Positions 6,244 to 57,926 of a stretch of 64,000 bases of DNA are shown here, piece by piece. This DNA is from a virus (Duplodnaviria > Caudoviricetes). The notes under the pieces were generated by a model. The model saw only the letters and a program-made list of their open reading frames with translations. It did no database searches and was not told the DNA's origin. The stretch lies in the IMG/VR virus record IMGVR_UViG_3300020048_003360, positions 64,001-128,000 of that record. The stretch is one strand, 5' to 3'. Position numbers and translations under genes: made by a program. The stretch's first letter is position 1, and each line of letters begins with the position of its first letter.

Positions 6244-6270
6244 TGCCTTCTCCAGTTGAGATAACTACAT

Positions 6271-6290
6271 ATAGGTAATATATTGCTATA
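6271..6290 (-). promoter_or_regulatory. Phage early-type promoter (GCAATATATTAYCTAT)
   Basis: ataggtaatatattgctata on + strand; contains the phiKZ early TATATTAC core; upstream of 4273-6243. Confidence 0.8.
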
Positions 6291-8502: not shown

Positions 8503-8550
8503 ACGTTTACTCCTTATGAAATTAATTAAATAGTACTAATCAGTACCCAT

Positions 8551-8570
8551 ATAGATAATATATTGCCATA
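8551..8570 (-). promoter_or_regulatory. Phage early-type promoter
   Basis: atagataatatattgccata, upstream of 6349-8502. Confidence 0.8.
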
Positions 8571-14350: not shown

Positions 14351-14385
14351 ACGATCTCCTAGTTAATACAGATGACATACTCTAT

Positions 14386-14405
14386 ATAGATAATATATTG
14401 CCATA
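14386..14405 (-). promoter_or_regulatory. Phage early-type promoter
   Basis: atagataatatattgccata. Confidence 0.8.
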
Positions 14406-17052: not shown

Positions 17053-17091
17053 GGTCGTTATCCTTTATGAAATAATTTAAAGTAGTTCCAT

Positions 17092-17111
17092 ATAGATAAT
17101 ATATTGCCATA
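17092..17111 (-). promoter_or_regulatory. Phage early-type promoter for the endonuclease gene
   Basis: atagataatatattgccata. Confidence 0.8.
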
Positions 17112-21138: not shown

Positions 21139-21165
21139 ATCACCATCCTTTTAAAGTAGTTCCAC

Positions 21166-21185
21166 ATAGGTAATATATTGCTATA
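21166..21185 (-). promoter_or_regulatory. Phage early-type promoter
   Basis: ataggtaatatattgctata. Confidence 0.8.
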
Positions 21186-24150: not shown

Positions 24151-26022
24151 TTACCACCGGCCAACAAAACGGCTGTTACCGTAATTTTGATTTGGGTTAC
24201 CACCAAATCCACCACGATTAAACATACCACTAAGATCACCAGACATAACTGCTTGTCCGATATAGTTGCTAGTAGCCCGATCGTAGCTGGCCATATCTGC
24301 GTACGAGTCAACAGGACGTACTGTTAGCCCAGCAGCCAAGCAACCACGTACCAATGCATCCGTAAAGGCCGTTGTGAAGGTTACGCGTGTGGCATACCCA
24401 GTGAACTGCACATTGCTAAACAGCGCGCTGATGATGCGTTTCCGACCAGCCAACCGAAGTTCGATTGGGTAGTTAGCCTTCAAGAATGTATCTGACCAAT
24501 CCCGAATAGCTGCCGGATCTTTTTCACCAACCATGTTCATAATGGCCAGATAGTCAATTTCACGGATGTCCTTACGAACACCACTTGAATCAACATAACT
24601 ACCCAAGTGAATACGATTGGCTTCATCACTAGCGATCTCACTACCTACTGGGAAGTAGTTAGCAAATGCACCATTCGTTAATGCATTAGCGGCATCCACA
24701 ATAGCTTGTTTTGCTGCGGCATTTCCACTAGCTGCAGCGCCGAACACACCGTTATACCAAGTATCAGGACCACATTCCGGCACATCCAAAGATAGAGCCA
24801 TACCCTGACGAACAGTACTACCGATCAATTTGTGATAGTGCTCGGGTTTGAATGAATCTGACTTAGTATCAATACGACTACCGATACCATTTGGATTACC
24901 TTCAAAATTCACTTCAATTCCTACTGCGCCAATGTCGTGCAGATCGATATCATTACTGAAGCCTTGGCGTGCAAATGCCTGTGCCCATTTATCACCTTCA
25001 CGTAAAGAGAGTGCCATATTAAGCGCAAGTAACTGAGCACCAATAGTCAACAACTGTGTTGATTCCAGTGCGGTTACCACGAACCGCGCCACATATTGAC
25101 GATAGTCACGCTGCACCTGTGGAGGTTGCATATACGGAGCGTATGCTTGCATTTCTTGTGGTGCCCATACCAAGTCCACAAAGCCTGAAATACGAGCGAT
25201 ATGACTCACACGCTCTACTGCCTGCTGTGAATTCTGTTGGGCATTCAGAGGAGCTGCAGAAAATACAATTTCCACGTCACTACGGATAGGATTACCAACC
25301 GCATTACTGGTTTCGGGATTACCGAAGGTAGTACGAATAGTAAGATTACTATCGCGTTCTGCATTGGCCAGATTCAGATCCACAAAACCAGGCTGATGAA
25401 TTTCCAGCTCAGAACTGGTAGCGAACATTGCGTTTGCAGCCAGGCGATAAACTGCTTGGGTATCTGTTACGTTGAAATCCCGTGGAATAACACATGCATC
25501 TACGTACAGTTGCCGAGATTGTGGGAAATGACGACTTACGTAAGTCGATACAACTTGACGTAGGACTGGATCATTCGCTTCGCCAAGAGTGCGAATGATT
25601 TCCACATTGGTACCGTTGATCATTTCAAAACGCGGCTGTGGCTGGTCAACACTGCCTTCAATAATTAACGTGTGGTACGCAACACCAACGTCAGGCATGT
25701 CGCGTAAACGTACTGCTAAGACAAGTACTGAAACAGAAAGTTCAGTAGTTGAATTAAGGTCAATCGGAATCAACGTGAACTCAAATGTCTTTGAATCCGC
25801 TGCTTCGGTATATACCTCAACCAAAGCTTTATTCAATTTACTTAATACTTCTGACGCGGGCGTGCGTCCCATTGCGGTATGAGTCAAACCACCCATATTG
25901 CGGAAACTGAAACCACCGCGTGCAGGTGCTTGTTGTTGTTGGGGTTGATTTGGTGCTTGTTGCTGTGCATTACTAAAAGCAGCAGCCATTGAATTACCGT
26001 CAGTACCTGTTTTTAGTGCCAT
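24151..26022 (-). CDS. chmA: Chimallin, major phage nucleus shell protein
   Basis: 623 aa, Q/P-rich N-terminus; GNPIRSD, DIGAVG, RIDTKS, KDIREIDYLAIMN align with recalled chimallin motifs; directly upstream of nvRNAP beta'. Confidence 0.88.
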   Translation of the reverse strand: MALKTGTDGNSMAAAFSNAQQQAPNQPQQQQAPARGGFSFRNMGGLTHTAMGRTPASEVLSKLNKALVEVYTEAADSKTFEFTLIPIDLNSTTELSVSVLVLAVRLRDMPDVGVAYHTLIIEGSVDQPQPRFEMINGTNVEIIRTLGEANDPVLRQVVSTYVSRHFPQSRQLYVDACVIPRDFNVTDTQAVYRLAANAMFATSSELEIHQPGFVDLNLANAERDSNLTIRTTFGNPETSNAVGNPIRSDVEIVFSAAPLNAQQNSQQAVERVSHIARISGFVDLVWAPQEMQAYAPYMQPPQVQRDYRQYVARFVVTALESTQLLTIGAQLLALNMALSLREGDKWAQAFARQGFSNDIDLHDIGAVGIEVNFEGNPNGIGSRIDTKSDSFKPEHYHKLIGSTVRQGMALSLDVPECGPDTWYNGVFGAAASGNAAAKQAIVDAANALTNGAFANYFPVGSEIASDEANRIHLGSYVDSSGVRKDIREIDYLAIMNMVGEKDPAAIRDWSDTFLKANYPIELRLAGRKRIISALFSNVQFTGYATRVTFTTAFTDALVRGCLAAGLTVRPVDSYADMASYDRATSNYIGQAVMSGDLSGMFNRGGFGGNPNQNYGNSRFVGRW

Positions 26023-26090
26023 GATCTCGTTTTCCTTAAATATACATCATTAAAAAAGCGCTTTTTTATAGAATCAATAATTGATTCCAT

Positions 26091-26110
26091 ATAGGTAATA
26101 TATTGCCATA
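26091..26110 (-). promoter_or_regulatory. Phage early-type promoter for chimallin
   Basis: ataggtaatatattgccata; short palindromes in the leader. Confidence 0.82.
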
Positions 26111-36126: not shown

Positions 36127-37125
36127 TTATAAAACTAAACCTGTATCATGAGCTTTATCAGTATCTGACAATACTCCAACTTTCTTTACTCGTGCTGCTT
36201 GTTTTTGTTCCAGATCTGTAAGAATCTTTTGGAGATGCTTACCAGCTGCTGGGATTATGCCATCACTAATTACATAGTGGAGTGGAGCTTTACTCAATAC
36301 AGCCTCACCAATGGCCTTTGGAAGAAAACCCACACACTGGTATTCTGGCATCTCCATCAACGCAGTAGAGGTACCTTCAGAGGCTAATGTGGCCACACTG
36401 ATAACAGAGCCTAAGCTGTCGTTATTAACTTTACTTTCCATAATTGTTAATGACGCCAGTTGTACTGGGAAAGTAGTTACTTTATTAAAACACAACCAAT
36501 TATGTAAATCACGACTATCTAGTTCATGGTGTTGACGCGAAAACAACAAAGTTAACGACATAACAACATTAAACAATATATTATCTGCTTCACTTCTGCT
36601 TGTGGTATTGCTATTTTGCACATACGACATCACCACAGGGACACCTAGTATTTTAGAGATGCTTTCGTAACTCTTAATAGTTTTTAATGTATTCTGAGCA
36701 TCTAAACGTGTGTCAGCAGAACCAATAGTTAATACTACACATGGAATACCTGTACTGAGTAGTTCTTTTGTTAACAGCGGAGCAATGACACTACCTGAAC
36801 CACCAGCAGCAGAGCCAACTACAATATTTAGATCGGCTGGCTTAAATTGCTGTAGGATAGCCCGAATTCTGTTATTGATTTCATCATGGTTTTCAGATCT
36901 AATTTTTCCACTACCATCAAGATCCTCCAAGATATATGCGTTGGTTTTGTTTATATGATCTTTTAAATTTGATTTACTGGTATCAACATAAACAATATCA
37001 ATTTCAGCAAAACCAATTTCTTCTTGAGATCTATGAATCTCTAACATACTGCCGATATTGGTACCAGCTCCACCACACGCATAAATCCTAACCTTACCAT
37101 TAACATTTCTTACTATATCAGTCAT
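36127..37125 (-). CDS. phuZ: PhuZ phage tubulin
   Basis: CGGAGTNIG, VDTS, GSGKIR.EN, AAGGSGSVIAP tubulin signature. Confidence 0.92.
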   Translation of the reverse strand: MTDIVRNVNGKVRIYACGGAGTNIGSMLEIHRSQEEIGFAEIDIVYVDTSKSNLKDHINKTNAYILEDLDGSGKIRSENHDEINNRIRAILQQFKPADLNIVVGSAAGGSGSVIAPLLTKELLSTGIPCVVLTIGSADTRLDAQNTLKTIKSYESISKILGVPVVMSYVQNSNTTSRSEADNILFNVVMSLTLLFSRQHHELDSRDLHNWLCFNKVTTFPVQLASLTIMESKVNNDSLGSVISVATLASEGTSTALMEMPEYQCVGFLPKAIGEAVLSKAPLHYVISDGIIPAAGKHLQKILTDLEQKQAARVKKVGVLSDTDKAHDTGLVL

Positions 37126-37192
37126 TTCTTACTTCCTTTAAAATATTAAACTTCGGCCGAAGTTAATTGCGAACACTGCTAATAGTGTCCAT

Positions 37193-37212
37193 ATAGGTAA
37201 TATATTGCCATA
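37193..37212 (-). promoter_or_regulatory. Phage early-type promoter for phuZ
   Basis: ataggtaatatattgccata; perfect palindrome aacttcggccgaagtt in the leader. Confidence 0.82.
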
Positions 37213-37345: not shown

Positions 37346-38149
37346 ATGTTAGCGTTAGCGAAATTATTAGATGAGGTACACTTTCGTATACCAAAATCTA
37401 TACTAGAGATATGTTTTATTCCTAGAAACATTAAATGGAGACAAGCTCCCCCTAGCATAGACGAACAAATTATGGCTCTGGTAGTTAGACCTAGAGTATT
37501 AGTGGACTGTGATCTAGTAGGTGGTACTGAAGTTTTTATTAGTCTAAATAATGTACATGTAGAGAGATCTGATTATAATACTAACATATATAGAATACCA
37601 AAAACACTTACAAATAATAGATCTATTAATAGTGTATTGAATATTACGTTTTCTGATCCAAGTAGAATGCAGAGCTTTGGTGTAGCAGCACAACAGCAGA
37701 GTACAATGATGATGCAGTTGGGTTCTGGAGTAATGGATGCACATGGCCCAATTCCAATTACATCGTCAGCTAGAGTACAATTAATTGGTGAGAATGTAGT
37801 AATGGTTAAGGACGCTACTATAATTCCACCAAATGCCTATCTTAGATGTATATTAGCAAATGATGAAAACATGAGTCATTTACAAAATAGAAGTTTTCAT
37901 CATTTTTCAAACTTAGGTGTATTGGCAGTTAAGGCGTATATCTATAACGACTATATTATTCAGTTAGATATAGGTCAGTTAATGGGTGGTATGAATATTG
38001 GTAAGTTTAAAGAAATAGTAGATAGTTATGCCGATAGTGAAGAATTGTATCAGACGTATTTACGTGAGAAGTGGCAGAAAGTGGCATATCAACAAGATAC
38101 AGAAACTATGAATAGATATCTAAAACTACTAATTGGTGGTAATAGATAA
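37346..38149 (+). CDS. Conserved phiKZ-like virion structural protein, 267 aa
   Basis: SIDEQIM..VVRPRVLVDC.LVGG, AVKAYIYN, YADSEELY..YL.EKW pattern. Confidence 0.6.
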   Translation: MLALAKLLDEVHFRIPKSILEICFIPRNIKWRQAPPSIDEQIMALVVRPRVLVDCDLVGGTEVFISLNNVHVERSDYNTNIYRIPKTLTNNRSINSVLNITFSDPSRMQSFGVAAQQQSTMMMQLGSGVMDAHGPIPITSSARVQLIGENVVMVKDATIIPPNAYLRCILANDENMSHLQNRSFHHFSNLGVLAVKAYIYNDYIIQLDIGQLMGGMNIGKFKEIVDSYADSEELYQTYLREKWQKVAYQQDTETMNRYLKLLIGGNR

Positions 38150-38199
38150 AAAAAAATAACACCCGACATATGGATGTTATTTTTAAAGAGAGAGGCTAC

Positions 38200-38352
38200 C
38201 TAACAACCTCTCTCATGGTTCCGATGATCGAGATCCATCAATTCTTGTAGTCTAACTTCATCATCCTGGCCTACCTCTTTACACAGGACATAGCTGACGA
38301 CTATGTCCTGTTTCTTACAACGTTGGCAATCGCCAATCTCTTTTTCACACAC
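38200..38352 (-). CDS. Small CxxC protein, 50 aa (MCEKEIGDCQRCKKQDIVVSYVLCKEVGQDDEVRLQELMDLDHRNHERGC)
   Basis: TAGGAG RBS, GTG start, TAG stop; below the ORF-track cutoff. Confidence 0.5.
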   Translation of the reverse strand: MCEKEIGDCQRCKKQDIVVSYVLCKEVGQDDEVRLQELMDLDHRNHERGC

Positions 38353-38441: not shown

Positions 38442-38678
38442 CTAGTTGGTTCTTTTCTTTAACTCTTCTAGTATGGCTTTTTTAGAATTTACAAAATACT
38501 CATCTATTTGTTTGTGTTTTTCTACCTTTTCTATGATAGTATCACAGAGATCCACCAGACTATGGATCTCTGTATCTAATCGATCCAAATATTGTAGTTG
38601 ATCTCGAAATAGTGTTTCCCGAATTCTATTAATCATTTCACTACACTTATTATTGATTTCGCTATGTTCATCAGACAC
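38442..38678 (-). CDS. Hypothetical protein, 78 aa
   Basis: AGGAG RBS; early promoter upstream. Confidence 0.6.
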   Translation of the reverse strand: MSDEHSEINNKCSEMINRIRETLFRDQLQYLDRLDTEIHSLVDLCDTIIEKVEKHKQIDEYFVNSKKAILEELKKRTN

Positions 38679-38729
38679 GATTCATCTCCTAAAAACTAAC
38701 CAATAGAACAATTCTATTGGTCACTACAT

Positions 38730-38749
38730 ATATGTAATATATTGCCATA
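38730..38749 (-). promoter_or_regulatory. Phage early-type promoter
   Basis: atatgtaatatattgccata. Confidence 0.75.
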
Positions 38750-38784: not shown

Positions 38785-39210
38785 ATGGATCTTAAACGTT
38801 TAGAAGTGTATAAAATAGGTATAAAACCTATAGACGAAGAACACTTTTCTTGTTTCATTATGTTAGATGAGTTAGAAAAAGCATTAATGTCTAACACCAT
38901 AACTGAAGATAATATTAATAAAAGTAGTATATGGTTAGATTTTGAAAATAAATTAAAAACACATTTTCAAAATGAAGAACTCTTAATGGAGTCTCTTAAT
39001 TACCCATATGTAAAAGAACATAAACGACAACATGTAGAATTGTTAACAAAATTTTATATTATTTTTAGTTTTAATCCTTCAAATATTAACATACATCCAC
39101 AGCACATAGTTGATGATTTTTTTAATTTACTATTAGAACATATCGACCATCACGATATTAACTATGCTGCTTTTATAAAAGAGTGTATAAAATATGGAAA
39201 ACACAGATAA
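38785..39210 (+). CDS. Bacteriohemerythrin-family di-iron protein
   Basis: Complete ligand set: DEEH, HFQNEE (HxxxE), HKRQH (HxxxH), HIDHHD (HxxxxD), with MESLNYP. Confidence 0.9.
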   Translation: MDLKRLEVYKIGIKPIDEEHFSCFIMLDELEKALMSNTITEDNINKSSIWLDFENKLKTHFQNEELLMESLNYPYVKEHKRQHVELLTKFYIIFSFNPSNINIHPQHIVDDFFNLLLEHIDHHDINYAAFIKECIKYGKHR

Positions 39211-40228
39211 GTTTGAAAAAATAAAAAGTGCTGAAGTACTGCGTTTAATAATATCAAAAATAGCAGAACATCCCGCAGCATTTACTCCAGAAACATATGC
39301 TGTTTGGTATGAATTTATTACTGCAATTAACCCATTATTAAACGACTCGGTACTAAGATTAATAAATACAGGATATAAATTAGATAATGCAACTATCAAA
39401 AAACTCTACGATAAACATATATCTAAATGCATGGCTTGTGCTGAAAATAATAATGTAAAATTAAAAAACGAAATAGTTAGTCTCTTTAGTAATCTAATGA
39501 TAGATACTGAAGAGACTACTAAGCTAACAGATAGATTTTCTACTGATCTAACTACTTATGACGAAAGACTACAAACAATATCAACTATAGTAGATTTACA
39601 GAATCTAATAGTAACCATGACTTTAGAAACTAATGCTACTAAGACTTTAGCTAAAAATCTACATAAAAAACTATTAGATAGTAAATTACATATAACTGAA
39701 TTACGTAAAGAGTTAAAATCAGCACGTGTTGAAGCAAATATAGATCCATTAACTAAGTTATTAAATAGAAGAGGTTTGGATTTAGCTGTTGCAGATATAG
39801 ATATAAGTAAATTATGTATTTTGCTAATAGATATAGATAGATTTAAACAAATTAATGACGATTATGGACATTTATTTGGTGATGATGTGATTAAAAAAAT
39901 TGCAGATATATTTACTTCTAAAATTAGAAAAAATGATATATCCGCTAGATTAGGTGGTGATGAATTTATGATTATATTACCAACCATAGACATTAATCTC
40001 GCTTATAAATTAGCTGAAGATATTAGGCACACTATAGAGCTAATGACTGTCCCACACAATACATATAAGAAAATTGTAAACAATATAACTGTCTCTATAG
40101 GAGTAGTAATTTCTTCTACAAGTATGGATATTTTTAAATTAATTGACAAAGCTGATAAAAGTTTATATATTTCAAAAAATACAGGTAGAAATAAAACTAC
40201 CATTTACAACTTAGATCTAAAGGAATAG
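39194..40228 (+). CDS. Diguanylate cyclase (N-terminal coiled coil plus GGDEF domain)
   Basis: DPLTKLLNRR, DIDRFKQINDDYGHLFGD, RKND I-site, ARLGGDEF, TVSIGV, ADKSLY.SK..GRN. Confidence 0.93.
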   Translation: MENTDKFEKIKSAEVLRLIISKIAEHPAAFTPETYAVWYEFITAINPLLNDSVLRLINTGYKLDNATIKKLYDKHISKCMACAENNNVKLKNEIVSLFSNLMIDTEETTKLTDRFSTDLTTYDERLQTISTIVDLQNLIVTMTLETNATKTLAKNLHKKLLDSKLHITELRKELKSARVEANIDPLTKLLNRRGLDLAVADIDISKLCILLIDIDRFKQINDDYGHLFGDDVIKKIADIFTSKIRKNDISARLGGDEFMIILPTIDINLAYKLAEDIRHTIELMTVPHNTYKKIVNNITVSIGVVISSTSMDIFKLIDKADKSLYISKNTGRNKTTIYNLDLKE

Positions 40229-40231
40229 AAA

Positions 40232-40798
40232 ATGAAATTTTTACGTCGTGCACTAGAAGCAGATATTAACGAAAATGATGATTTAGATAAAAAAACAATA
40301 GTAGTAAAAGGACCATTATCTGAAGTCTATACTAAAGCACTGCATGTAGCATACGCTAAAGATCCAGCTGAATCAGATGGTGATGAGAATGTGGTTTTAG
40401 AAGCCATTTCTAATACATCCAATAGAGGTGGTAGTGCATTGCGTAGAGCATTAGTTTCTATGGAAACGCAACAAATGGATAGTGCTATAGTAGAAAGATT
40501 AGCACGCACATTAAACGGTATGGGTGATATAACGCCAACTAACAATACTACTCTCTATGCTGTGAGTAAAAATGAATTAACTGACCAAACAGTGGTAGAT
40601 ATAACCAGTGAACTAGTAGAGGCAGATGATAGTGATAGAGTGTTTTTAATTATCGATGGAACACTACCTGGTGATAACGGCAACGCCAGTAGTCCAATAG
40701 AAAGAGTATCAGAATTAAGTGCGGTTATTGAGTCATTAGCTGAAAAACATAAATGTAGAGTATTTTATTCTTTACAAGACGCAGTTAGACACATGTAG
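40232..40798 (+). CDS. Conserved phiKZ-like probable head protein, 188 aa
   Basis: KGPLSEVYTKAL...YAK pattern; ALE/SME motifs typical of prohead protease cleavage sites. Confidence 0.55.
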   Translation: MKFLRRALEADINENDDLDKKTIVVKGPLSEVYTKALHVAYAKDPAESDGDENVVLEAISNTSNRGGSALRRALVSMETQQMDSAIVERLARTLNGMGDITPTNNTTLYAVSKNELTDQTVVDITSELVEADDSDRVFLIIDGTLPGDNGNASSPIERVSELSAVIESLAEKHKCRVFYSLQDAVRHM

Positions 40799-40910
40799 CA
40801 GTATATTACTACTTTAAACAAAAAAATAGTTTAGAGTAGTAATTATGCCGTAAATAAAAAAAATACCACCACAGCAGAGGACTAAGAATCTAGTCATACT
40901 GGGGCGATAC

Positions 40911-41985: not shown

Positions 41986-42011
41986 TTTACTCTCCTAAGG
42001 TTAAACTACAT

Positions 42012-42031
42012 ATAGGTAATATATTGCCATA
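42012..42031 (-). promoter_or_regulatory. Phage early-type promoter, back-to-back with late-type TTTTATG (42049-42055, +)
   Basis: ataggtaatatattgccata. Confidence 0.8.
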
Positions 42032-43923: not shown

Positions 43924-46161
43924 CTATCTATTAGCTATTTCAAATGTAGTTAATGGTCTATCGCTATATACACCATCGGAATATGCTAAACGATTATCTG
44001 CATATCCATTTCTAAAATCAATACTATCTTGTTTATTGAAATTAGTGGTGCGTCGTTTATTTTTCTTAACCTCTTTAGCTCTTTCTATAAGACCATCTAA
44101 ACTATATACTTCATCACTTTCTAGAATAATTTGTTTATCCAATACCCTTAGTTCGTGCTCTAAACGTAGTGATACAAAATCATCAGTTTCCTTAGTGAGT
44201 TGATCATATATACTTTCAATTCGAGTTCTAATTAACTGCTGTTCTAGTTTATTTTCAATATCTACCTTAGACTCCCCAATTTCTAATCCTAAATTAGACA
44301 TTATTTTACTAGTGTCAATTCCGTAAAATGATAAATTTTTACCATGAAGTATTAACCACTGAGTTAAAAGCCAGCCAATTACCAGATCGTCATGTTCACC
44401 TACTTCATGATCTACCCTGCCGTTCTTACTAACTAAACCAGTAATCTGACCAATTAATTCTTTATCGTAAATATTATTACACCCTCTTTTAGCCGCATTT
44501 TGTAATGTGGTGGAGTAGATTTCACTACGACTAGCATAGCCAACTGCTGAAGTAGCAAACCCAAATGTCTTTTTGTATTTGACGTATATATCAATAGATC
44601 GTCTTACCATTGGTGTTTTGATTTCTGAATATCTTTCTGGATACTCATCATAATCATTTACCACTCTATTAAATATCCGTTTAAAGGGGTCTATACCCTT
44701 CTCTGGCAGCATTAGTAGTAAGTAGTCCATAATCATACCACCAGTTGATCTACGTTCAATAATGGTCGTTATGTTGACGTAGGATACCATTATTGAAACT
44801 AACCACTCTGAAAACATAATTAAATTAGTCTCATTAAAAACACCAGTCATAATTACTTCTAATGTCTCCACATCAACCATAACACAACCAATATCATCAC
44901 CGCCACTAGCATCACTGGTATCTATACCCAGTATAAATTTACTACTCATTAATCTATTGTGAATTTTTTCTTCTGATACATACCACCTAGTAACGTAGCC
45001 ATGTGGTTTACTAATATCTGTATACGATACAGGCTTAAGACTATTAGCTATTTTTTCTAGAATAATGTCAGATAGTGGATTACTCTCACTACCAGATGTC
45101 CATACATTAAAATAATCTCGTGAAGCATCATCTCCAGTTTGTAGTGAATCATCTAGTTTTGTTTTTAGCCACTCATCTGTCTTACCTAACTGGGTATGAC
45201 TGAGCGTAACGCTTACTCTTATAGCACCAGTACGTGAGTTATGTTTTATTAAGCGTTCTAAATCATCCTGATCTTTTGCATCAAAGAATGGTTCGGCCCA
45301 TACGGCAGATTCTGAAATTAATCTAAAAACAAATTTACCATCCTTATCGTCTTTTTTACCAGCAGTATTAGTTAGTATGGTGCCGTATGGTGCATTGGCT
45401 AATTTAGCTGCATCTACAGCAGCACCAGTAGCAGCTAATGCAGCTGGTAATGCTATTGCGATATTCGGCTGGAATGGACCTTCATCCACAATGAATATTG
45501 GACTAGTTAGACCTCTACCTAGGTTATATGCGCGTTTAGGCGATGCCTGTGGTACGTGTGTGATAAAACTATTGTTTAAACTACGTATCGTTAATTCTTC
45601 GCCGTTATTAACATCTAGTTTAGTTTTTTGATCTAAATATCTAGGTAGTTCACTAGCTATTTCTTTTAACCTTTCGATATTTCTGCGACGTAAAATATCG
45701 TCTTTAGTAAGTAAATTTATTTGTGTATTAGTACATAATACATTCATTAATAGTGTAACTAATACATCAGTAGAAAAGGATTTACCAGTCTGTCTACTCT
45801 GTGTTAAAATCGTCATTACGTGATTAAAAAATAACCACCATAAAGCTATATTACCTCTATTGGCTTCAACCATAACAGATGGTCTACCGGCAATAGCAGG
45901 TGCTCTAGCTATATTTCTAAAATACCACCATGGATTATCTCTAATTTCTAAAGCAATCATAGCCATTTGTTCTATAGATAACTTAGGATCAAATGGATCT
46001 ACACCTATTAGTTCTGGATTTAATGTAGCTAACATAAAACTATTATTTTCAATACCCATAGTTCTATATAAACTAGCTACTCTTAGAAAACTCTTATTCT
46101 TTGTATCCACATCTATTACTGCTTTAGGATACTTTTGCCAGTCATTTCTAAATAAAATCAT
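43924..46161 (-). CDS. terL: Terminase large subunit
   Basis: SRQTGKS Walker A, VDEGPF Walker B, LGIDTSDASGGD nuclease motif, HDDLVIGW. Confidence 0.92.
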   Translation of the reverse strand: MILFRNDWQKYPKAVIDVDTKNKSFLRVASLYRTMGIENNSFMLATLNPELIGVDPFDPKLSIEQMAMIALEIRDNPWWYFRNIARAPAIAGRPSVMVEANRGNIALWWLFFNHVMTILTQSRQTGKSFSTDVLVTLLMNVLCTNTQINLLTKDDILRRRNIERLKEIASELPRYLDQKTKLDVNNGEELTIRSLNNSFITHVPQASPKRAYNLGRGLTSPIFIVDEGPFQPNIAIALPAALAATGAAVDAAKLANAPYGTILTNTAGKKDDKDGKFVFRLISESAVWAEPFFDAKDQDDLERLIKHNSRTGAIRVSVTLSHTQLGKTDEWLKTKLDDSLQTGDDASRDYFNVWTSGSESNPLSDIILEKIANSLKPVSYTDISKPHGYVTRWYVSEEKIHNRLMSSKFILGIDTSDASGGDDIGCVMVDVETLEVIMTGVFNETNLIMFSEWLVSIMVSYVNITTIIERRSTGGMIMDYLLLMLPEKGIDPFKRIFNRVVNDYDEYPERYSEIKTPMVRRSIDIYVKYKKTFGFATSAVGYASRSEIYSTTLQNAAKRGCNNIYDKELIGQITGLVSKNGRVDHEVGEHDDLVIGWLLTQWLILHGKNLSFYGIDTSKIMSNLGLEIGESKVDIENKLEQQLIRTRIESIYDQLTKETDDFVSLRLEHELRVLDKQIILESDEVYSLDGLIERAKEVKKNKRRTTNFNKQDSIDFRNGYADNRLAYSDGVYSDRPLTTFEIANR

Positions 46162-57808: not shown

Positions 57809-57906
57809 CAAGGACTCTCCTTTGGTGGGTTCATTAACAACATACGTTGTCATTACATTAAGCACTTAAGTATTTTTTAATTAGAAAATACTATATTAGT
57901 ACTCAT

Positions 57907-57926
57907 ATAGGTAATATATTGCCAAA
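57907..57926 (-). promoter_or_regulatory. Phage early-type promoter
   Basis: ataggtaatatattgccaaa. Confidence 0.8.

Follow-up and report, generated by a model that had tools for sequence, protein, structure and literature searches.

A hemerythrin gene coupled to a diguanylate cyclase gene in an uncultured nucleus-forming jumbo phage: a candidate oxygen- or redox-linked c-di-GMP module

A 64-kb stretch of DNA (hereafter the window), which forms part of a 208-kb IMG/VR virus record (IMGVR_UViG_3300020048_003360), carries a pair of overlapping genes coding for a hemerythrin (Hr) and a diguanylate cyclase (DGC), the enzyme type that makes cyclic di-GMP (c-di-GMP). The pair occupies the same locus in a diverged relative and, on this comparative evidence, represents an accessory operon of two genes conserved within a clade of uncultured freshwater phages. 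The reading proposed here, with a probability of about 0.5, is that this operon supplies an active cyclase of host origin which would raise the c-di-GMP level of the infected cell, and a hemerythrin which would tie the module to oxygen or redox state. Nucleus-forming jumbo phages have been studied mostly for the shielding of their DNA and little is known of the ways in which they steer host physiology; a conserved host-derived c-di-GMP synthase would mean that such a phage takes over the central lifestyle switch of its host. The pair also represents a compact and testable two-protein system which raises two questions, whether a virus can make the manipulation of its host oxygen-dependent and whether a stand-alone hemerythrin can serve as a sensor subunit.

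The features that carry the argument are listed below.

24151..26022, minus strand: chimallin, the phage nuclear shell protein (phrog_4795, E 1e-94)
36127..37125, minus strand: PhuZ tubulin (phrog_4733, E 5e-91)
38785..39210, plus strand: single-domain bacteriohemerythrin of 141 amino acids (aa), assigned from TIGR02481 (58.5 bits), the ligand alignment and its relatives
39194..39210, plus strand: overlap of 17 nucleotides (nt) between the stop region of the hemerythrin gene and the start of the DGC gene, the latter in the +1 frame relative to the hemerythrin
39194..40228, plus strand: diguanylate cyclase, 344 aa, with a helical N-terminal domain and stalk (aa 1-180) and a GGDEF domain (aa 181-334)
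39194..39733, plus strand: DGC N-terminal domain, with the motif HPAAFTP..YAVWYE..INP common to the bacterial family
39926..39937, plus strand: RxxD allosteric product-inhibition site (I-site), RKND, aa 245-248, its R and D columns conserved in alignment A1
39953..39967, plus strand: GGDEF active-site signature, aa 254-258 (GGEEF in bacterial homologues)
43924-46161, minus strand: terminase TerL (PHROGs)

The protein encoded by the first gene is, according to profiles and alignments, a divergent but genuine member of the bacteriohemerythrin family. It scores above the cut-off of NCBIfam TIGR02481 (58.5 bits for a cut-off of 51.75), slightly below that of Pfam PF01814 (24.4 bits for 25.3) and below that of NF033749 (53.3 bits for 84). 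The seven predicted di-iron ligands are all present and follow the pattern H...HxxxE...HxxxH...HxxxxD, with H20, H60/E64, H79/H83 and H119/D124; the same set occurs in the relative L097 described below, and the corresponding columns are invariant or nearly so in alignment A2, which contains the window protein and 21 relatives. An exhaustive HMMER search with this protein recovered 1174 hemerythrin relatives at E<=1e-3, and a word-indexed protein search returned no match but the protein itself. In the Atlas, the protein gives a confident hemerythrin model (predicted template modelling score 0.79), and every feature match belongs to bacteriohemerythrin clusters.

The second protein matches PF00990 with 132.4 bits (cut-off 23.8) over the entire model (1-161), and TIGR00254 with 139 bits (cut-off 37.4). 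Its motifs comprise DPLT (184-187), NRR (191-193), DIDRFK (213-218) and GHLFGD (225-230), together with the GGDEF signature and the RKND I-site, which lies five residues ahead of it, i.e., at the canonical spacing, and which also occurs in the L097 copy. D213/D215, K218, N221, D230, R252, K328 and R332 correspond to invariant columns of alignment A1 (the window DGC and 31 homologues); by mapping from PleD, we take these residues to serve in metal, phosphate and guanine binding, N221 and D230 presumably being those that recognise the guanine. On this basis the enzyme is probably active and feedback-regulated. The signature motif of the N-terminal domain is invariant in both alignments A1 and A4, and structure models (AlphaFold2 model, pLDDT confidence score 78.7) predict that two long helices, aa ~86-128 and 132-181, form the stalk. 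No Pfam family matched the N-terminal domain; a Foldseek search of its model against the PDB gave no hit at E<=0.001, what it did return being generic helical bundles and BAR domains, and its matches in the Atlas were limited to the N-termini of other GGDEF proteins. The cyclase also weakly matches the Cas10/Cmr2 palm (28.6 bits for a cut-off of 27), which is the cross-match expected among homologous palm domains.

Hr and DGC are separate open reading frames (ORFs), not a single polypeptide of the type found in the bacterial hemerythrin-DGC fusion Bhr-DGC; their close adjacency resembles instead that of pairs of a sensor and its DGC partner, with an overlap or a gap of 1-3 nt in four lineages. 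Besides the 17-nt overlap of the window, the junction consists of an 11-nt overlap in L093, a 1-nt gap in L095 and a 3-nt gap in L097. From this arrangement, translational coupling of the two genes is probable, and we infer that they are co-transcribed. A fusion of both ORFs by programmed frameshifting or readthrough was considered and rejected as a general explanation because the frame relation differs among lineages: the window, L093 and L095 have the DGC in the +1 frame, and L097 has it in the same frame behind a stop codon. A complex prediction for the hemerythrin with the full-length DGC scored 0.20 for a mark of 0.32, a result that counts neither way.

The surrounding genome is that of a large phage. 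Chimallin, PhuZ, several split RNA polymerase subunits, terminase and tail sheath are all encoded in the window and recognised with PHROGs; phrog_4795, phrog_4733 and four families of beta-type RNA polymerase subunits constitute a gene set of the Chimalliviridae type. By its gene content, this uncultured freshwater phage belongs to the nucleus-forming, chimallin/PhuZ jumbo type; its closest cultured relatives are Burkholderia phage FLC9 and Ralstonia phage RP12. A megablast search of the locus against GenBank phages gave no match. The gene order dUTPase-PhuZ-DUF7484-78aa-Hr-DGC-188aa recurs in assemblies from several ENA samples (ERZ27262925, of 206 kb, ERZ27262924, ERZ27262927 and ERZ27262922) and in one Logan run (SRR7760390), and contigs from four runs of a single aquatic-metagenome study span the PhuZ-to-Hr and Hr-to-DGC junctions with zero differences.

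Most of the observations reported in a first-pass annotation of this DNA were borne out by these results. The 141-aa hemerythrin with all its di-iron ligands agrees in ORF coordinates, TIGR02481 match and seven ligands; the 344-aa DGC possesses intact DPLT, D.D.FK, GGDEF and RxxD motifs, each located in a protein that reaches 132 bits with PF00990; and the 17-nt overlap lies at 39194-39210. Both genes had been described as being as AT-rich as the phage, and they turn out to be even richer in AT, with a GC content of 24.9% for the hemerythrin and 27.0% for the DGC against 34.2% for the window. The assignment to a nucleus-forming phage is upheld by chimallin, PhuZ and the split polymerase subunits, and the position of the pair inside a phage gene string, between PhuZ and TerL, by the PHROG matches on both flanks. 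An assembly chimera, which the annotation had proposed to check from contiguity, is refuted because order and junctions are identical in several assemblies and four runs.

Conservation of the pair and origin of the cyclase

A comparison is provided by two variants of a relative, L096 and L097, in which the order dUTPase-PhuZ-DUF7484-Hr-DGC-gp22-like gene is the same as in the window. Identity to the window proteins amounts to 63% for PhuZ, 71% for DUF7484, 31% for the hemerythrin and 40% for the DGC, and the L097 pair retains all of its hemerythrin ligands, GGDEF and RxxD. The hemerythrin of L096/L097, designated P0138, resides on scaffolds of 40-100 kb and is carried by at least 24 contigs. 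The scaffold label 'BUCK21-1' of these relatives may refer to the stratified-lakes set PRJEB38681 (PMC8121793), an unconfirmed correspondence that serves as a habitat lead only. Two short contigs extend the series: L093 harbours the hemerythrin nearest to that of the window (38-40% identity) and, overlapping its gene downstream, an ORF that shares 46% identity with the window DGC over its first 56 residues, and L095 also displays the Hr-DGC junction. In all, the hemerythrin directly precedes the cyclase in each of the four phage-type loci that possess this DGC family.

Scans of IMG/VR with the DGC and with an alignment of its N-terminal domain detected no further viral contig of this family, with patterns that would miss diverged copies such as that of L097. 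A distinct 539-aa GGDEF protein (L007:7527-9146; IMGVR_UViG_3300042340_000379, 207,855 bp) shares 37% identity with the window DGC over ~100 aa and is unrelated to it beyond the GGDEF domain.

With respect to ancestry, full-length homologues of the DGC, ~342 aa long, number in the hundreds and share 41-46% identity with it over 95-97% of its length; those with a name belong to the Betaproteobacteria: Nitrosomonadales, Burkholderiales, Ferrigenium kumadai and Gallionella. A scan of the genome collection yielded mostly generic GGDEF matches, full-length relatives occurring at ~10 loci only; in bacteria, the family is associated with a conserved chromosomal neighbourhood, clpB-nadC-GATase. The tree, which the first-pass annotation had suggested as a means of finding the donor, makes the two full-length phage DGCs sisters (SH-aLRT branch support 99) within a betaproteobacterial clade (support 97) to which Gallionella also belongs, so the donor is placed in that clade. 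Together with the shared position, this topology supports a single capture in the phages; judged from the sequences, the cyclase was taken whole from a Gallionellaceae-like betaproteobacterium, along with its N-terminal domain and stalk. Owing to this origin of the cyclase, the analysis points to Gallionellaceae-like freshwater Betaproteobacteria as hosts of the phage; the searched isolate genomes included no chimallivirus infecting bacteria of this kind.

A hidden Markov model (HMM) scan revealed no hemerythrin within 4-5 kb of the DGC family at any of 13 bacterial loci, nor was one found in two further contexts. Because none of these 15 bacterial loci has a neighbouring hemerythrin, the pairing looks like a product of the phage lineage, or of a donor not yet sampled, that was then retained despite great divergence. 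The hemerythrin is assigned, again by comparison, to a phage-associated lineage of its own. The idea that the pair is a split version of bacterial hemerythrin-GGDEF fusions therefore fails as an account of its origin, the cyclase being a member of a different family, characterised by a helical N-terminal domain, with no hemerythrin at 0/15 loci.

Proposed mechanism and alternatives

According to the mechanism favoured here, the hemerythrin and the cyclase would be produced from one message by coupled translation in the host cytoplasm, where the DGC would dimerise through its stalk and convert GTP to c-di-GMP under product inhibition. The infected cell would be pushed towards a high c-di-GMP state, with decreased motility, increased adhesion and matrix, and altered surface structures. 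The signal would act via effectors of the host, since no EAL or PilZ gene occurs in the 208-kb record. The hemerythrin would link the module to oxygen or redox state, either by binding the cyclase in trans, following the logic of Bhr-DGC and of the H-NOX pairs discussed in the last section, or by conditioning the intracellular O2 or iron state. Gene integrity, coupling, conservation and origin are the points shown in silico; activity, middle or late transcription from a TATG-type promoter and the effect on the host are putative.

Direct gating of the cyclase by the hemerythrin, as a trans-acting oxygen/redox switch, is a rather doubtful component of this scheme; it is made plausible by the precedents of the fused Bhr-DGC and of stand-alone H-NOX proteins. 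If true, a lytic nucleus-forming phage would read the oxygen available to a microaerophilic host and set the c-di-GMP of that host to match, e.g., by immobilising infected cells at the oxycline or by shutting off a surface receptor. The pair would then be the first gas-sensing second-messenger circuit known from a virus, and its hemerythrin the first shown to control an enzyme while being a subunit of its own.

Several observations weigh against an operon in which both proteins serve c-di-GMP signalling. In the L098 (L098:300-1216) and P0251 (ENA contigs ERZ1426853 and ERZ1426514) lineages, the gp22-like gene comes immediately after the hemerythrin gene, with no DGC; in a weakly resolved tree, these hemerythrins nest among those linked to a DGC. 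L094 (JGI 3300002026), a phage-like and mostly unannotated contig of 80.7 kb, encodes, beside a 2-oxoglutarate (2OG)-Fe(II) oxygenase, three hemerythrins, two of them adjacent, with no GGDEF nearby (L094:1777-4770). Hemerythrins may recur as accessory proteins among uncultured large phages, and because of the hemerythrin-only lineages and L094, the hemerythrin is predicted to have a role independent of the cyclase and to be more than a DGC accessory. Conversely, because bacterial members of the DGC family occur with no hemerythrin neighbour, the native input of the cyclase is expected to be something other than hemerythrin. In the L096 variant, a single-base difference (L096:4442 compared with L097:4442) creates a stop at DGC codon 16, the gene caller restarting at Met22 (324 aa); this stop may be an error, or a natural inactivation or attenuation of a gene that is dispensable in some populations. 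The grouping of the two phage DGCs joins two long, AT-skewed branches and carries a compositional warning. Finally, the TATG promoter candidate ahead of the pair, described in the next section, is a lead only, based on a motif of 4-5 nt with low information content.

The alternative that survives best, a minority prospect and a serious one, considers the two genes as independent accessory functions sharing a transcript, so that oxygen would not control c-di-GMP synthesis. In a microaerophilic host, the hemerythrin would, e.g., buffer O2, peroxide or iron, or it would supply O2 to an oxygenase, and the DGC would be constitutive or respond to its own N-terminal input. The lineages L098 and P0251 with a hemerythrin alone, the three hemerythrins of L094 with their neighbouring 2OG-Fe(II) oxygenase and no GGDEF, and the bacterial DGC orthologues never found beside a hemerythrin are all consistent with this view, as is the existence of protective single-domain bacterial hemerythrins, e.g., in Campylobacter (PMC4257069). 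Against it, in four lineages whose proteins are only 31-40% identical, the DGC comes right behind the hemerythrin and the two ORFs overlap or are 1-3 nt apart; because the pairing has been kept in a fast-evolving variable slot across these lineages, chance adjacency is unlikely.

An improbable alternative holds that the cyclase does not serve to raise c-di-GMP and acts either as a dominant-negative mimic, titrating the partners of a host DGC through the retained N-terminal domain, or as a source of another nucleotide directed against host defence signalling. The retention by the phage of a complete host-type N-terminal domain with its invariant motif and the weak Cas10/Cmr2 palm match (28.6 bits for 27) speak for this view. 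Nevertheless, the latter match is the one expected between homologous palms, both phage lineages have preserved the I-site together with the catalytic, metal, phosphate and guanine positions, and the 208-kb record is devoid of an EAL or PilZ partner. An assembly chimera, a bacterial contamination or a decaying, functionless passenger pair is scarcely credible, despite the bacterial affiliation of the nearest full-length DGC relatives and the premature stop of one variant (L096), in view of the same junctions in at least five assemblies and four runs with zero differences, of a GC content (25-27%) even below that of the phage itself, and of a syntenic relative which keeps every functional residue at 31-40% identity.

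Neighbouring genes and candidate promoters

The genes and signals surrounding the pair are the following.

37346..38149, plus strand: DUF7484 protein (PF24302, 284 bits), a conserved chimallivirus gene forming the left border of the variable slot
38152..38184, strand not assigned: terminator-like hairpin between DUF7484 and the small minus-strand ORFs
38442..38678, minus strand: 78-aa ORF behind an early-type promoter and a 5' hairpin (38697-38723), called in independent assemblies
38727..38747, minus strand: copy of a 21-nt early-type promoter motif, oriented away from the hemerythrin gene, with the 78-aa ORF under its control
38731..38734, plus strand: candidate TATG-type start site (phiKZ late type, resembling that of the non-virion RNA polymerase, nvRNAP), 51 nt upstream of the hemerythrin ATG
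40232..40798, plus strand: 188-aa ORF with its ATG 3 nt past the DGC stop, homologous to FLC9 gp22 over the N-terminal half of the latter
6268-6288, 8548-8568, 14383-14403, 17089-17109, 21163-21183, minus strand: copies 1-5 of the 21-nt motif
26088-26108, 37190-37210, 38727-38747, 42009-42029, 57904-57924, minus strand: copies 6-10 of the 21-nt motif

Homologues of the DUF7484 protein occur in 264 phage records, the best being that of FLC9 (57%); identity to the RP12 protein is 49%. Between this gene and the hemerythrin, the minus strand of the window contains two small ORFs (50 and 78 aa) behind an early-type promoter, which are missing from the empty slot of L097. The 50-aa ORF (38200-38352, minus strand) is cysteine-rich near its N-terminus. 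Between DUF7484 and gp22, FLC9 possesses eight unrelated small minus-strand genes and neither a hemerythrin nor a GGDEF gene, and for this reason the slot occupied by the Hr-DGC pair is classed, by gene comparison, as a variable accessory one.

On the other side of the pair, the DGC stop had been described in the first-pass annotation as lying just before a core virion gene. The adjacency is real, with a gap of 3 nt; the virion assignment is not sustained, the 188-aa ORF having no Pfam, PHROG or NCBIfam match and a sole isolate homologue, FLC9 gp22 (30% identity). Its homologues follow the pair in L097 and the lone hemerythrin in L098, and it is best viewed, from this distribution, as a clade-specific gene. 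At position 40871 of the window, in the intergenic region behind this ORF, two of the four runs have contigs with a one-base deletion. Further downstream, the 745-aa terminase ORF (43924-46161, minus strand) is matched by large-terminase PHROG profiles over its first ~218 residues only. The P0251 contigs encode, upstream and on the opposite strand, a protein of 369 aa that matches sigma-70 region 4.

Regarding transcription signals, the promoter 8-mer of phiKZ is TATATTAC (PMC7058600). By itself, this 8-mer is not enriched in the window (15 found, 11 expected); an extended 21-nt motif built around it is present in 10 copies (<=3 mismatches) for 0.01 expected, all of them on the minus strand. 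It precedes chimallin, PhuZ, RNA polymerase subunits and small ORFs and is conserved in L097 and L098. A GATTC..AAA box ~20 nt upstream of the motif is also conserved, and a short hairpin is often found just downstream. No copy is directed towards the Hr-DGC pair in the window, nor does one occur in the L097 spacer. TATG is the consensus of the late nvRNAP promoters of phiKZ (PMC7618050), and in all five lineages read, TATG followed by G/T precedes the hemerythrin start by ~20-50 nt. These signals weakly suggest that Hr-DGC expression is middle or late instead of immediate-early.

Comparison with known systems

The Vibrio cholerae hemerythrin-GGDEF fusion Bhr-DGC (Schaller et al. 2012) has a ten-fold higher activity when diferrous (PMC9388753). 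Like this protein and the Ferrovum Bhr-HD-GYP, the phage system ties a di-iron hemerythrin with a full set of ligands to a c-di-GMP enzyme, and by analogy the reduced (diferrous) state would be expected to correspond to high activity. It differs from Bhr-DGC in being phage-borne and made of two polypeptides, and in the cyclase, which has an unrelated helical N-terminal domain of its own and comes from a family without a hemerythrin link in bacteria. The hemerythrin HMM also brought up, among generic GGDEF loci, two Bhr-DGC-like bacterial loci, in an Agarivorans metagenome-assembled genome (MAG; L053:3536-4663) and a Betaproteobacteria MAG (L064:4001-4910), in which a hemerythrin domain is fused to, or lies right after, a GGDEF domain of another family.

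The best architectural analogue is offered by the H-NOX/DGC pairs, in which the gene of a small stand-alone gas-sensing metalloprotein also lies beside a DGC gene. In Legionella (Hnox1-Lpg1057), Dinoroseobacter (H-NOX-Dgc1) and Shewanella woodyi (H-NOX-DGC), a stand-alone H-NOX regulates the adjacent DGC in trans (PMC8846402). These pairs are cellular and rely on a heme protein that senses nitric oxide, whereas the phage pair is viral and would rely on a di-iron hemerythrin.

The chromosomal DGC family of ~342 aa, represented by Ferrigenium kumadai (P0093) and Gallionella (L013), resembles the phage DGC in length, domain order, N-terminal motif, stalk, I-site and active site, with 40-46% identity over 95-97%. 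The phage copies differ by their AT-rich sequences, their long branches and a GGDEF in place of GGEEF, the bacterial genes being located at clpB-nadC-GATase.

GGDEF genes as such are not new in phages: eight PHROG families match the DGC, including 5594, 14602 and 9661, and annotated phage DGCs occur in Bacillus phages SP-15 and G, Microcystis phage MaAM05 and YuA-like Pseudomonas phages. In the literature searched, no biochemical characterisation of a phage GGDEF protein was found. The window DGC resembles them as a phage-encoded protein predicted to manipulate the host; unlike it, none of them belongs to a chimallin/PhuZ phage, none shares the N-terminal domain, none was seen with a hemerythrin, and identity reaches at most 38% in the GGDEF domain only.

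As for the chimalliviruses themselves, FLC9 and RP12 have the core genes in common with the window phage, but the FLC9 slot lacks both hemerythrin and GGDEF. None of the matches listed among the 167 GGDEF records of the phage collection is a jumbo chimallivirus, a comparison made by genus and record size and not record by record; Erwinia, Vibrio, Serratia, Ralstonia and Aeromonas, the dominant genera among the 264 genomes with DUF7484, are absent from the named GGDEF genus tallies. Hemerythrin gave three weak matches in the same collection, none of them in a chimallivirus, and two jumbo-phage reviews mention neither hemerythrin nor GGDEF genes. The statement that no case had been described in this phage family agrees with these searches across chimalliviruses and other phages, no such gene being found in isolate chimalliviruses or in the two reviews. 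The novelty accordingly resides in a conserved stand-alone hemerythrin and DGC pair within a nucleus-forming phage clade, phage GGDEF proteins themselves being already known.

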